A stretch of 41,232 bases of DNA from a virus (taxonomy: Duplodnaviria > Heunggongvirae > Uroviricota > Caudoviricetes), in IMG/VR virus record IMGVR_UViG_2877263951_000005; one strand, given 5' to 3'. This document shows positions 11,206-13,990 of this stretch, in pieces. The translations under genes were made by a program, and so were the position numbers. Every line of letters starts with the position of its first letter. The first letter of the stretch is position 1. The notes below the pieces were generated by a model that was not told where the DNA came from, ran no database searches, and saw nothing but the letters and a program-made list of their open reading frames with translations.

Positions 11206-11319
11206 TGACCTTTCTTAAAGTACTCCAACCTACTGAATCCTAAGGGATACGGCTTTAAGCCTCCTTGCAGAGTTACTTACTGTAACCCACTGTGTAACCC
11301 TCTCAGGGCATACAGACAT

Positions 11320-12924
11320 ATGATTCAGCTATCCAGTAGTCACAAACTTCCAGCAGTCTACTATCTCTACCAGCGTAACGGCGTCTACTACTTCCGTCTT
11401 AGGGTCAGACAATCAAACAATGATAGAATGACCTCAATATCATTACGGACCAAGGATAGACGCACCGCTATGGCTTACTCAAGGCACATAAAGGCAGCAC
11501 TCAAGGCAATACACGCAGACAGACCCAACGCTACCTACGAGGAAATGAGGGAACACCTTAAGGACATCGCTGAGTGTGAACTGTCTATGGGCCGTTCAGA
11601 TCTCTTTGAGCCTGACATGAGGGATATCTACCGGGACCAATACGGAGAACTTGGTGAGAGCCTTACCGATGCTCTGGCTAGTGAGCCGCTAAGCATTGAC
11701 CAGCATCGTTACATCAATGAGGCCCTGAAGGTGCTAAAAGCCTGTATGAGGCGTATCGAAGCGGGAGACAGTCAGCCTCTGATAGATTACGTCGATCTTT
11801 TTAATGATATTGATAGGCAAGATAACCAAGCAGACTCTGTGTCCCTATCTGTTAATGCTCCAGAAGTAAAACCAGAAGTTACGCCTAGCATTACCATAGC
11901 GAGCCTCTTTGAGCAATACGAAGCGGAGAACTATCAGAACTGGAAGCCTGCAACCTTAAGGGAAAACAAGGCGTCACACGCTGCGTTAATCGAAATATTC
12001 GACCATCTGGGTCTCAATGCAGACGCTAACAGGGCTGACATGCTTAGGGTCCGTGATGTGCTCCAGCAGTTACCTAGGAACCGTAAGCAGCGCTTCAAGG
12101 ATGTCCCACTTGCTGACCTGTTGAGCCGTGAAGATAAGACAGATTGTCTGGATGTCGTTACCATCAACAACAAGTATCTTATTAAGATGGCTGCTGTCTT
12201 TAGGTGGGCTGTGCGCAATGACTTGATTAAAAAGAACATGACTGAGGGTCTGGAGCTTAAAGTCCCTCAGCGTAAAGCCTCAGGGGCCCGTAACGCCTTC
12301 TCTACGGAGCAGGTGGGGCAACTACTGGTCGCAGCTAAGGCATACTCTCAGAAGACCTCTGGTAAGCCGTATCATTATTATGTTACCGCCTTGGCTGCTA
12401 TCACTGGGGCGAGACTCAATGAAATAGCCCAACTACAGGTCAAAGACGTCAGGACCACTGAGGCGGGAACCGTTTATATTCATATCAATGAAGACGATAG
12501 TAGTCTACCCGGTAAGAGCATCAAGAACGCTCATAGTGACCGCTGTGTGCCTCTGGTCGATGGGGCCTATGGTTTTATATTGGCTGACTTTATGGCGCTT
12601 GTAGAGACCCGTAGAGGCGCTGACGGTGATGACGCTATGGTGTTCGATGGTCTGCGTCTCATGAAGAACGGTTACGGTGAGCAGGTGAGTAAATGGTTTA
12701 ATCGGACGTTGTTGCCTAAAGTCCTCGTAGACCGTAGCGGCTTAGCGTTTCACTCGTTTAGACATACAGTTGCGACCCAGTTAAAACAACATGGGGTCGA
12801 GTTGGTGTATGCACAGGCGATCATGGGGCATAGTTCAGGGTCTATTACGTACGACCGTTATGCTAAAGAGGTCGAGGTTGATAGGCTGGTCAATGTGATG
12901 GCTGATGTTTATAAGGAGACCTAG
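11320..12924 (+). CDS. tyrosine recombinase / integrase, 534 aa
   Basis: Intact ORF 115 bp after the last tRNA; C-terminal catalytic region with ...GARLNEI..., ...HSFRHT... and a C-terminal Tyr (ITYDRY); AGA/AGG/ATA-rich codon usage. Confidence 0.75.
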   Translation: MIQLSSSHKLPAVYYLYQRNGVYYFRLRVRQSNNDRMTSISLRTKDRRTAMAYSRHIKAALKAIHADRPNATYEEMREHLKDIAECELSMGRSDLFEPDMRDIYRDQYGELGESLTDALASEPLSIDQHRYINEALKVLKACMRRIEAGDSQPLIDYVDLFNDIDRQDNQADSVSLSVNAPEVKPEVTPSITIASLFEQYEAENYQNWKPATLRENKASHAALIEIFDHLGLNADANRADMLRVRDVLQQLPRNRKQRFKDVPLADLLSREDKTDCLDVVTINNKYLIKMAAVFRWAVRNDLIKKNMTEGLELKVPQRKASGARNAFSTEQVGQLLVAAKAYSQKTSGKPYHYYVTALAAITGARLNEIAQLQVKDVRTTEAGTVYIHINEDDSSLPGKSIKNAHSDRCVPLVDGAYGFILADFMALVETRRGADGDDAMVFDGLRLMKNGYGEQVSKWFNRTLLPKVLVDRSGLAFHSFRHTVATQLKQHGVELVYAQAIMGHSSGSITYDRYAKEVEVDRLVNVMADVYKET

Positions 12925-13011
12925 AGGAGACCATAGTCTAGGATGACACTTACTACAGACCTGTGTGGTCATGTTTTTGACTCATAGTTTTCTCTACTTG
13001 TCAAGGATAAT

Positions 13012-13034
13012 TAATACGACTCACTATAGGGAGA
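13012..13034 (+). promoter_or_regulatory. exact T7 RNA polymerase promoter consensus
   Basis: TAATACGACTCACTATAGGGAGA read directly at 13012-13034 (predicted +1 G at 13029). Confidence 0.85.
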
Positions 13035-13230
13035 AGGGACACAAAAAGTTTTCTCTTCTAGGACAACTAACCGTAACTTATCGCATCCTTTCAGGGGCGG
13101 GATGACCAATTACAGACACCAAGCGTTCTACTTAAAGTGAATGCTTCCTGTGTGCTCTGGGTCAGTCGATAAGTGAATAGCAATAAGACACAATCATCTT
13201 AATTATGGTCTCTAGTCCCTACAGGGGCTT

Positions 13231-13372
13231 AACTTAAAGTTAACTTAAAGACACAATTAAAGATTAACTTATAGTATTACTTAAAGTTAACTTAAAGACA
13301 CAATTAGAGATTAACTTTAAGTATTAAATAAAAGATTTAATTAAAGACCAATTAAAGATTAACTCTAAGGGA
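13231..13372 (+). repeat. AT-rich direct repeats built on CTTAAAG motifs
   Basis: ACTTAAAGTTAACTTAAAGACACAATTAAAGATTAACTT at 13232 and again at 13280 (48-bp period), third partial copy near 13340. Confidence 0.85.
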
Positions 13373-13419
13373 ATACCTTAAGGGGTGATGATATTTATAA
13401 TAATCAATCACCAAACCTA

Positions 13420-13646
13420 TAGGTCTTCTCTAGGGTCTCTCTATAGGTCTTCTCTATGGTCTCTCTATAGGTCTCTCTAGGGTCTCCTCTAGGCATTACC
13501 CCCAGAAGCTAACTCTATGGCCCTCTATGGTCCTCTATGGTCCTCTATGGCCCTGTACGTCATTCTTTAGGATGCCCTGTAGTTTCGTATAGCCTGATGC
13601 CTAGAGAGACCCTAGAGAGACCCTAGAGTGGCTCCTAGAGAGACCC
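13420..13646 (+). repeat. iteron-like arrays in inverted arrangement
   Basis: GGTCTCTCTAGGG-type repeats at 13420-13492, four CTCTATGGNCC repeats at 13514-13555, and CCCTAGAGAGACC repeats (reverse complement of the first array) at 13600-13646. Confidence 0.85.
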
Positions 13647-13807
13647 TCCCAGTAGCTCCGCACAGCTACATCGTCATCATCATAGTATTCAATCTCAAAG
13701 TCATTCTGTTTGCATCCTGTTGTCCTGCTGGTCTCCCTTCGCTTGGGGACTTTGAGTAGGTCAGTGGGGGTGCGACTTCAGGGTGCAAACAAAAAGGAAA
13801 TCAAGCG

Positions 13808-13990
13808 ATGTCTCAACAACCACAACAACCACAACAACCACAACAACCACAACAACCACAACAAGAAATCAGCATCATTAACCTCGACCAGCTTGTGTCC
13901 ATGACCTCAGTTGAAATTGCTGAGCTGACAGGCAAGGAGCACCGAAATGTCCTTCGTGATATTCGTAAGATGCTCGAAGAACTTAACGCG
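13808..13990 (+). pseudogene. Rha-like regulatory gene, 5' fragment with (QQP) repeat N-terminus, truncated by IS1
   Basis: ...VSMTSVEIAELTGKEHRNVLRDIRKM resembles the Rha N-terminal region; the frame runs straight into IS1 at 13991. Confidence 0.55.
13814..13864 (+). repeat. perfect 9-bp tandem repeat (CAACAACCA) x5 plus a partial copy
   Basis: Read directly; encodes (QQP)n at the N-terminus of the Rha-like frame. Confidence 0.95.

Follow-up and report, generated by a model that had tools for sequence, protein, structure and literature searches.

The DNA analysed here is a window of 41,232 nucleotides (nt) from a Caudoviricetes virus record (IMG/VR IMGVR_UViG_2877263951_000005), in which positions 11206-13990 hold the surviving 2.8 kb of an integrated island, namely the left part of an element inserted at a tRNA-Gly gene. 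From its sequence, this element is probably a truncated member of a family of helper-dependent satellites of T7-like phages. The family is found in Enterobacterales, in E. coli plus at least 15 other genera, and its members share an integrase together with cis-acting copies of signals from the T7 phage group, all of them on one strand. Somewhat more guardedly, the balance of the evidence leans towards a general proposal, in which T7-, T3-, K11- and K1F-like phages have natural satellites in Enterobacterales that carry no replication or packaging enzymes and rely on mimicry in cis. This mimicry would comprise a promoter that tracks the helper, a promoter with an AT-rich origin and a concatemer junction split in two, one half of which lies in the integrase gene (int) and which is complete only at attP, some members adding the defence gene RAZR and a capsid-fold protein. 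An earlier note, made from the letters of the window, had left the choice between the left end of an integrated T7-like phage and a satellite-like island served by the RNA polymerase of such a phage. The comparisons support the latter, as the promoter is conserved exactly between diverged flanks, its types are exchanged between lineages and both boundaries of the T7 junction are mimicked, and the former was rejected since relatives measure 4.2-7.3 kb and have no RNA polymerase, replication, tail or terminase genes.

The window element carries an exact consensus T7 RNA polymerase promoter of the class III type, 23 nt long (-17 to +6; TAATACGACTCACTATAGGGAGA; 13012-13034, + strand), where shuffled sequences give an expectation of 0. 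The promoter, which the earlier note had read correctly, is identical to phi6.5, phi9, phi10, phi13, phi17 and phiOR of T7. It is preceded by a block (12925-13011, + strand) with GACCATAG/GTGGTC repeats and GACTCATAGTTTTC, and this block is duplicated together with the promoter in two relatives, L002 and L005 (L numbers denote family loci). The earlier note had reckoned with relatives in which the promoter was not conserved; the exact 23-mer is kept as a single copy in L001, L006, L007 and L010 and as two copies some 119 bp from each other in L002 and L005, with flanks that are just 86-95% identical. Moreover, the same promoter in the same flanking context is present in 58 of 5,426 complete E. 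coli chromosomes (~1%), and never on plasmids. The 23-mer being the exact laboratory consensus, contamination by a cloning vector or an assembly artefact was considered and ruled out on the ground of these 58 independent chromosomes; furthermore, no vector sequence adjoins the promoter and relatives hold K11-, K1F- and T3/ICP3-type promoters at the same position, so that the chance left to such an artefact is negligible.

Beyond the T7 type, sites of the form xxxxxxxxxxCACTATAGGGAGA with 0-2 mismatches were found on the + strand at 15 of the 17 loci from the genome collection and in all E. coli relatives examined, the two loci without a site ending soon after the integrase gene. These sites lie mostly 0.1-1.5 kb, and up to ~2.8 kb, 3' of int, the chance expectation for sites with 0-1 mismatch being ~0.02 per locus, and each family member has one to four promoters for phage RNA polymerases. 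The specificity region from -17 to -5 varies between lineages, which display T7, K11, K1F-like and T3/ICP3-like types. Indeed, L007 (E. coli) and L010 (K. pneumoniae ATCC 13883) have a promoter of the exact K11 type, AATTAGGGCACACTATAGGGAGA, and two further sites close to it in sequence. Three promoter variants were compared with phage records and all three are real promoters of T7-group phages: the K11 type is present in about 10 copies per genome in 293 Klebsiella phages, the AATTAACCCACACTATAGGGAGA variant in 12-16 copies per genome in T7-like phages of the ICP3/N4 type, where it is annotated as a promoter, and the ACTTAACTATCACTATAGGGAGA variant in Klebsiella phage SAKp10309 and Pectobacterium phage LET1, with near matches in K1F-type phages. 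Perfect conservation of the promoter together with repeated exchange of its specificity fits selection for recognition by the RNA polymerase of an infecting T7-like phage.

This pattern bears directly on whether the family is a relic, that is, a decayed temperate T7-like phage whose phage-like signals are now functionless. The layout of the elements follows that of T7, from a genome end and an integrase among the 'early' genes through the promoter and AT-rich DNA to a capsid-fold gene with a hairpin terminator, a small hydrophobic open reading frame (ORF) and right-end sequences, and temperate features are reported for a T7-like Pseudomonas phage, LUZ100. Given this collinearity, a temperate T7-like phage may well be the evolutionary origin of the family. 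However, a present state of decay does not explain the conservation, because relics would not keep promoters, sizes and att repeats. The 23-nt promoter is perfect while the neighbouring DNA is 86% identical, its specificity has been swapped repeatedly to match different living phage groups, and the element sizes are tightly bounded, with intact att repeats in many genera. We therefore regard a functionless relic as quite improbable.

A second set of signals resembles the concatemer junction of T7-group phages. Inside the integrase ORF, window positions 11835-11854 (+ strand; CTCTGTGTCCCT|ATCTGTTA) are identical at 20/20 nt to T7 149-168, as shown by short-word BLAST against T7, a segment consisting of the final 12 nt of the 160-bp terminal repeat and then ATCTGTTA. 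The island sequence hence mimics the right boundary of the T7-group terminal repeat with its class II pause signal. The motif TCTCTGTGTCCCT|ATCTGT is the annotated end of the terminal repeat in T3 and Kvp1 and stands at the corresponding place in K11, and K11-like phages align to the query around it over 52 nt at 75-78%. With a 101-nt query around the motif, 394 phage records were matched, nearly all of the T7 group, and among the matches listed it is mostly unannotated DNA that aligns. In the literature, ATCTGTT is the strictly conserved class II pause or termination signal of T7 RNA polymerase found at the concatemer junction; by definition, it reads ATCTGTT along the non-template strand in the transcribed direction and has A, C or T in front of it. 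The window sequence T-ATCTGTT at 11846-11853 agrees with this definition and lies on the same strand as the T7 promoter. Pausing at the ATCTGTT site is reportedly needed for concatemer processing. From the arrangement of the two signals, T7 RNA polymerase starting at the island promoter would reach the pause signal solely after circularisation.

Of 19 family integrases, 16 keep the right-boundary motif, which translates as S-V-S-L-S-V in a linker that is hypervariable elsewhere. Leu is encoded without exception by CTA or TTA and the second Ser by TCT, which leaves TATCTGT unchanged in 15 of the motif-bearing integrases, and the seventh base of the pause signal is T or A, the same variation as between T7 and Kvp1. 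This motif-anchored view is clearer than a codon-level test of synonymous constraint, which was blurred by the poor alignment of the hypervariable linker. A few nucleotides further on, the integrase ORF holds CCAGAAGTAAAACCAGAAGTTAC repeats (11860-11884, + strand; direct reading) that weakly resemble the CCTAAAGT repeats found in T7 behind the terminal repeat; they carry GAA in place of TAA, and the integrase ORF thereby stays open.

The left boundary of the junction has its mimic at the other end of the intact elements, 150-300 bp before attR. An alignment of the left junction boundaries of T3, T7 and K11 with the right ends of 10 elements gives a shared CACAAAAATCTGAG..TATCTAAYAGT..CCCCC(C)ATAGCCC, which reads TTTAAGAATTTACCACAAAAATCTGAATGGGTA|TCTCATAGTT...CCCCCCCCATAGCCCC in T3 and TTTAAGAAATTACCACAAAAATCTGAGGGGATATGTAATAGTT...CTCCCCCCGTAGC in L010. 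In the integrated state, each end of the element thus has one junction half. Excision would bring the two to either side of attP in T7 order, since the sequence would then run from the left-cut site through ~0.9 kb comprising attP and the 5' part of int to the right-cut site with its pause signal, followed by the rest of int, the promoter or promoters and the AT-rich region. The order in a T7 concatemer is left cut, terminal repeat, right cut with pause, short repeats, phiOL and AT-rich region. In the annotated elements inspected, all genes of substance point in the same direction, and behind the left end the integrase gene would come first. In T7, it is at the left end that host RNA polymerase starts transcription and pulls the DNA into the cell. 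A small hydrophobic ORF of 21-25 aa was also observed between the capsid-fold gene and the left-junction mimic (L010 10714-10779; L013 about 14984-15061), a position that can be likened loosely to that of T7 gene 19.5 before the right terminal repeat.

Downstream of the promoter, the window element has an AT-rich region of ACTTAAAG/ATTAAAG repeats, made of 2 x 47 bp plus degenerate copies (13229-13372, + strand), which is a candidate T7-type origin. The 47-bp tandem repeat spans 13232-13325, GC content falls to 17-25% over 13220-13370, and 6 of the 7 copies of ACTTAAAG in the window lie within 13130-13322, about 1 copy being expected in the whole window. In T7 itself, ACTTAAAG is found at 415 and 465, after phiOL, at 5999 in the primary origin and at 39183, before phiOR. 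The earlier note had likened these repeats to the ACCTAAAG arrays of the T7 left end; the repeats are present, but that likeness is matched or exceeded by the one to the region just 3' of phiOL. Indeed, the only BLAST matches of the AT-rich region, all weak (E 0.03-4), include nt 430-560 of Kvp1, pO103 and Serratia 2050H2, just 3' of phiOL. Origins of T7 consist of one or more T7 promoters and then an AT-rich stretch with a site for the gene 4 primase, phi1.1A/phi1.1B forming the primary origin and phiOL a secondary one. In the island, the promoter is followed some 200 nt on by the 150-nt stretch of 17-25% GC, a spacing unlike that of T7, and in L002 and L005 two tandem promoters precede the AT-rich region. 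A reading of promoter plus AT-rich region as a T7-type origin is plausible from the sequence, not established.

Further repeats lie between this region and the first cargo gene. An inverted repeat GGTGAT...ATCACC with a 17-nt spacer of 88% A+T (13384-13412, + strand) is kept in relatives and may serve for unwinding. It is followed by direct iterons CTATAGGTCTTCTCTAGGGTCTCT (13417-13493), five direct copies of CTCTATGGYC (13513-13562) and three inverted copies of CCTAGAGAGACCCT (13600-13647), so that the inverted iteron arrays announced by the earlier note are in place. T7 primase sites (GGGTC, TGGTC, GTGTC) number 21 in 12925-13807 against 3.8 expected, mostly inside iterons, with a similar excess in L001, L002, L005, L013 and L021. 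In L002, a different repeat, CTCAGTTTTGAGC, fills the region 5' of the Rha gene (22600-22790 and 23150-23190), and is found again, as its reverse complement, within the Rha coding sequence, which suggests that a DNA-binding protein and its iterons are exchanged together.

Relatives of the element were found by megablast in 388 of 5,426 complete E. coli genomes, all of them chromosomal and always right after the tRNA-Gly gene beside actS, and one scan of species-representative genomes added 17 loci in 15 genera, 4.4-6.4 kb long where both ends are present. The earlier note had proposed to look for intact relatives in bacterial genomes and for a second copy of the tRNA-Gly 3' end within them. 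Both were found, the final 11-23 nt of tRNA-Gly being repeated directly on either side of the intact relatives. Intact elements measure 4.2-7.3 kb and hold 3-7 genes; between the att repeats, L001, from E. coli NZ_AP027877, and L005 span 4,195 bp, L006 4,219 bp, L007 6,396 bp and L002 7,342 bp including an IS5 copy. The closest relative of the window element is L002 at 94.7% identity, and the next intact relative, at 86%, is 4.2 kb long.

These sizes speak to the reading of the stretch as the left end of a full-length T7-like prophage, the rest of which was lost to the insertion sequence IS1. The window element is truncated and its original size is not directly readable, which leaves some room for this reading. 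The two closest intact relatives, however, reach the att repeat after 7.3 kb (including IS5) and 4.2 kb, respectively. Moreover, the intact relatives have no gene for a phage RNA polymerase, DNA polymerase or other replisome component, portal, tail or terminase, and the hallmarks of an Autographiviridae prophage, a single-subunit RNA polymerase and ~40 kb of T7-type genes, are absent from the window and from all intact relatives. Relatives being small and devoid of T7-type genes, and the stretch having no nucleotide match in GenBank phages, a full-length prophage was rejected and deserves hardly any credence.

Clustering of ORFs revealed recurrent gene layouts. The 6.4-kb type starts with int, whose stop codon is overlapped by a DUF4145 gene of 210 aa; after ~0.9 kb of non-coding DNA come a DNA-binding gene that varies between elements (Rha, KilA-N, Ant-like or other), a 64-76-aa gene, a DUF6971 gene, a gene of 330-400 aa and attR. 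The 4.2-kb type has int, non-coding DNA, a KilA-N gene (L001, L005, L006) or an Ant-like gene (L018), one small gene and attR. In L002, the order is int, Rha, a small gene, IS5, DUF6971 and the capsid-fold gene, without RAZR, and the window copy probably once had this layout before its loss to IS1. A diverged promoter-like sequence, CAATACGACTTACTAATAGGAGA, was noticed ~230 nt 5' of the KilA-N gene in 4.2-kb elements (L001 22511-22533, L005 7755, L006 7689), its position matching that of an extra K11-like promoter in L010 (7592) and of the second promoter of L021 (11482). Right after attR, a second and unrelated island with its own integrase was observed in L001 (24196-25586) and L002 (27343-29384), and L002 has a third att-like repeat at 37484-37506, which points to the glyU site as a hot spot of tandem insertion.

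The last gene of the larger elements (330-400 aa; L010 9402-10610, L002 25796-26917) has no Pfam or PHROG match. An AlphaFold model of its product built with 20 homologues (pLDDT 64.5, pTM 0.62) gave 125 matches in the PDB and 147 among viral proteins by Foldseek at E <= 0.001, the top one at E 5e-9, and the matches listed (50 from the PDB and the named viral ones) are all major capsid proteins, capsids or encapsulins. According to this model, the gene is predicted to encode an HK97-fold capsid-like protein; hhalign found no relation of it to T7 gp10, and the gene is absent from the 4.2-kb forms. A GC-rich hairpin with a T-run was also seen after the capsid-fold gene, as is Tphi after the T7 capsid gene. 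As for the DUF6971 product, it matches an uncharacterised solved structure, 5eur.

The DUF4145 gene overlapping the int stop is PD-T7-4/RAZR (PADLOC E 8e-99; L007 6152-6784, L010 6397-7029). It is present in L007, L010, L012-L018, L022 and L025 and absent from the 4.2-kb forms and from the window element, in which int is followed by non-coding DNA. PD-T7-4, since renamed RAZR, is a zinc-ribbon and DUF4145 (HEPN) RNase; it defends by abortive infection against T7 and T3, and the portal ring of the phage triggers it (PMC13017515). PD-T7-4 'often overlaps an integrase gene' according to its 2022 report (Nat Microbiol 2022, PMC9519451). In text searches, no mention of 'integrase', 'island' or 'satellite' was found in the RAZR paper (Nature 2026, PMC13017515), and in the 2022 paper satellites were found only for P4 (PMC9519451); neither paper gave a passage on phage promoters at the locus or on its being a satellite. 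As RAZR lies 5' of the phage promoters, it is not controlled by them in the integrated state.

This gene is one argument for regarding the family as phage-triggered defence islands that are not packaged. Their promoters would sense infection and their origin and junction copies would serve as decoys for the replisome, RNA polymerase and terminase, a T7-like RNA polymerase turning on toxic or interfering cargo (Rha/KilA-N/Ant-like, DUF6971, capsid-like) and the integrase spreading the island occasionally by other routes. Indeed, many members hold RAZR/PD-T7-4, which is a proven abortive-infection gene against T7 and T3, the cargo otherwise named lies 3' of the phage promoters, and circular or packaged forms were not found in the collections searched. 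Likewise, the arrays rich in primase sites and the partial, promoter-like CTCTATAGG repeats could be decoys, and the capsid-fold protein could poison the assembly of helper capsids. However, decoys need no two halves that reach phage order, on the promoter strand, through excision alone. RAZR itself is 5' of the promoters and missing in the window copy and in the 4.2-kb forms, and the cross-genus integrase identity of 82-99% with a conserved att-proximal architecture argues for frequent transfer of the whole unit. Known satellites defend their hosts too, and defence does not exclude packaging. Hence, we hold a purely defensive island, both in its decoy function and in its triggered cargo, to be possible but rather unlikely; the satellite and defence-only models are not mutually exclusive.

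Under the satellite model, which we prefer, the sequence holds what characterises satellites, that is, an integrase and att sites of its own (attL only in the window), an incomplete set of virion and lysis genes and helper-type signals. The RNA polymerase of an infecting T7-like phage would fire the island promoters, and this transcription would express the cargo and prime replication by the phage replisome, as at T7 origins. The integrase would excise the island and so join the two junction halves across attP. The resulting circle or concatemer would be collinear with the T7 concatemer junction, and the phage terminase could cut and package it, with ends expected to start ...TCTAAYAGT and to finish ...GTGTCCCT. 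Packaging would take place as multimers of ~38-40 kb or, in members encoding the HK97 fold, possibly in capsids of their own. On entry into a new cell, the integrase gene, which comes first behind the left end, would be transcribed by host RNA polymerase, and integration of the island would follow. With 9 x 4.2, 7 x 5.45 or 6 x 6.2-6.4 kb, plus ~0.9 kb, multimers would come to 37.9-40.3 kb, a size compatible with T7-group capsids; this fit is weak evidence because there are few independent size classes.

Several points weigh against this model. To begin with, excision, replication and packaging are deduced from sequence, and the attP junction of circular or tandem forms was not found in two metagenome scans, one viral-contig scan and the 5,426 E. 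coli genomes. Among 50,697 GenBank phage records, the 2.8-kb stretch had no nucleotide BLAST match at E <= 1e-5, informative matches coming from short-motif searches only. The elements encode nothing recognisable as an excisionase, a replication initiator or a terminase subunit. With ~0.9 kb, the pseudo terminal repeat would also be long compared to the 160-230 bp of the phages. As for the right-boundary motif, the integrases of L019 and L020 do not have it, and since its peptide is conserved, conservation may act partly at the protein level. The enrichment in primase sites is lineage-specific, being absent in L007, L010 and L020, and it is not counted as core evidence because it is missing in some lineages and the repeats are not independent. 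Furthermore, T7 degrades host DNA, so that an integrated element must escape quickly, and abortive infection by RAZR, triggered by the T7 portal, would curtail the production of satellite particles too.

The family was compared with known systems, among which the PICMIs of Vibrionaceae resemble it in size. PICMIs, which do without genes for capsid remodelling, are packaged as concatemers that match the helper genome in size (Nat Commun 2024, PMC10803314); their core is int, alpA and a primase (prim-pol), they integrate next to fis, their ends are random (headful), and they mimic neither promoters nor pac sites (PMC10803314). Both kinds are very small islands (about 6 kb) that bear an integrase, PICMIs depending on virulent phages as the present family would. 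In contrast, the present family uses tRNA-Gly, shows no AlpA or primase family matches in its cargo and has copies of the helper promoter, origin-like and junction sequences, and the two have no protein homology beyond the tyrosine integrase. A second parallel comes from the laboratory. Plasmids with a T7 promoter-type origin and a T7 concatemer junction are said to be replicated by T7 and packaged as concatemers of ~40 kb. Both classes of cis elements in these engineered transducing plasmids are present in the island too, but the plasmids are laboratory constructs of authentic T7 DNA, whereas the island signals are natural, diverged, partly located in coding sequence, split by the att site and accompanied by an integrase.

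Satellite P4 also has promoters read by the machinery of its helper P2, and it shares with the present family an integrase, an association with tRNA genes, a helper packaging site and defence cargo. P4 measures 11.6 kb, has its own primase-helicase and cos sites, depends on a temperate helper and encodes the capsid-size factors Sid and Psu. The present family is without sequence or gene-content similarity to P4 and the core genes of the SatelliteFinder type are absent. The cf-PICIs are larger and encode an HK97-fold capsid of their own as well as portal, protease/scaffold, connectors and small terminase; larger family members likewise encode an HK97-fold protein, but as a single capsid-fold gene, and the 4.2-kb forms have none. 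By Pfam, PHROGs and PADLOC, none of the core genes of P4, PICIs, cf-PICIs and PLEs (alpha primase, Sid, Psu, delta; Stl-type repressor, Pri-Rep, TerS/Ppi; capsid module) was found in the cargo. Finally, the DUF4145 gene behind int in the 6.4-kb members is the PD-T7-4 gene of the RAZR/PD-T7-4 locus, and the window copy and the 4.2-kb members differ from this locus by its absence. In the literature searched, there was no description of the family, of T7-dependent satellites or of phage promoters in the island. What is novel is the tie to T7-group phages through promoter and split-junction mimicry; phage satellites as a kind and the RAZR gene were already known.

In the window, the island lies within a degraded lambdoid prophage, which comprises upstream of it a DnaC-like gene, DUF977, DUF1367, a Q-like gene and an ORF6N gene and downstream of it fragments of tail-fibre genes, with insertion sequence (IS) copies interspersed. 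As the earlier note had seen, four tRNA genes stand directly before the element (Met-CAT, Arg-TCT, Thr-TGT and Gly-TCC, 10895-11205; ARAGORN and Rfam). They belong to the prophage and not, as it had also proposed, to the element, which starts at 11206; an Rfam scan of the stretch gave nothing beyond tRNAs. The gene for tRNA-Gly(TCC) (11131-11205, + strand; ARAGORN) is attL and the integration site, relatives beginning likewise right after tRNA-Gly. Its final ~10 nt, GCCCGCTCCA, are common with the glyU-type core used in E. coli, and its 3' end agrees with the usual glyU target at 20/23 nt. Given that this target gene differs from that of the E. coli copies, the family is able to use a second site. 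The left arm between attL and int (11206-11319, + strand) derives from attP and is conserved from base 1 (TGACCTTTCTTAAAGTACTCC...) in relatives (left ends, 18 loci).

The integrase gene (11320-12924, + strand) is intact and codes for a tyrosine recombinase of 534 aa with PF00589 (Phage_integrase) and DUF6538, in agreement with the earlier note, as is its codon usage: AGA and AGG account for 49% of Arg codons and ATA for 31% of Ile codons. Homologues 82-99% identical were found in Shigella flexneri, Escherichia, Yersinia, Citrobacter, Klebsiella, Raoultella, Serratia, Cedecea and Lonsdalea. The Shigella flexneri cluster, at 99% identity to the window integrase, has 769 member sequences and a representative on a 3.4-kb contig, short as expected between IS copies, so the truncated locus of the window appears to be common in S. 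flexneri. A scan of viral contigs with the integrase gave seven loci, three of them 100% identical to the window integrase; these three appear to be prophage regions of sequenced isolates. The tRNA genes at 10895-11127 were seen to include a tRNA-Arg(TCT) and a tRNA with a CAT anticodon, possibly the ATA-reading tRNA-Ile2. Their place beside an integrase rich in AGA, AGG and ATA is probably a coincidence, because E. coli copies adjoin glyU alone.

Between the T7 promoter and the AT-rich region, a hairpin CATCC-TTTCAGGGGCG-GGATG (13084-13104, + strand) lies within a block of ~60 nt (13066-13125) that is conserved in 10 of the 20 loci scanned and has no Rfam match; in the Proteus copy, TTTCC...GGAAA, both sides of the stem are changed. 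A conserved leader with a long hairpin (GTTTGCATCCTG...CAGGGTGCAAAC; 13700-13797, + strand; z -2.35) precedes the first cargo gene and is conserved in Proteus (L021). A leader segment of ~95 nt is also seen at 92-93% identity in many E. coli genomes outside the island family, e.g. in O26:H11 strains, and the leader may be a separate mobile regulatory module. A scan of the region for sigma-70 promoters and terminators remained at background level. The first gene 3' of the T7 promoter in the window is the Rha-like gene noted earlier, starting at 13808, of which the first 61 codons survive (13808-13990, + strand; PF09669 profile positions 1-29, E 1.9e-9). Its full-length homologue in L002 has 234 aa (PF09669, E 7.6e-18). 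The N-terminus of the window ORF (13811-13864) displays six consecutive QQP, which stem from tandem copies of a 9-bp repeat, CAACAACCA; the L002 homologue does not have this repeat. The (QQP)n extension could be a variable N-terminus or reflect a shifted start.

The Rha-like gene is cut by an IS1 of 768 bp (13991-14758, + strand). The earlier note was right that only the left part of the element survives beyond this cut, neither the left-junction motif nor a second att core having been found anywhere in the window. The island was inserted first, in the prophage-borne tRNA-Gly gene of a genome that is evidently from Shigella flexneri, and IS1 cut it later, with the loss of cargo genes, left-junction mimic and attR. 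With these and the cargo past Rha codon 61 gone, the window copy is dead, unable to excise or to be packaged as a unit; its integrase ORF is intact and transcription from the T7 promoter, into IS1, would still be possible. IS copies are abundant in the window, with four ORFs of IS1 InsB length (167 aa) and four of IS3-family OrfB length (272 aa), located at 6318-6821, 9315-10133, 14240-14743, 14846-15664, 23412-23915, 28514-29332, 30957-31460 and 39882-40700, and two translated copies of OrfB length are identical. This abundance fits a Shigella genome and explains both the truncation of the element and the fragmentation of the prophage.

If the satellite model holds, T7, one of the virulent phages that have been studied most and a mainstay of biotechnology, for which no natural satellite was found in the literature searched, would gain a helper-satellite system that is easy to handle experimentally. 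Being built almost wholly on mimicry of DNA signals, this system would provide natural variants for defining the packaging signals and origins of T7, which are poorly understood, and the genomic context of the RAZR/PD-T7-4 defence gene would be explained. Around 1% of complete E. coli genomes (the 58 among 5,426) hold the exact T7 promoter at this place, from which T7 expression systems would transcribe. Moreover, strictly lytic T7-like phages used in therapy against E. coli, Klebsiella and Shigella could move such islands across strains and genera.

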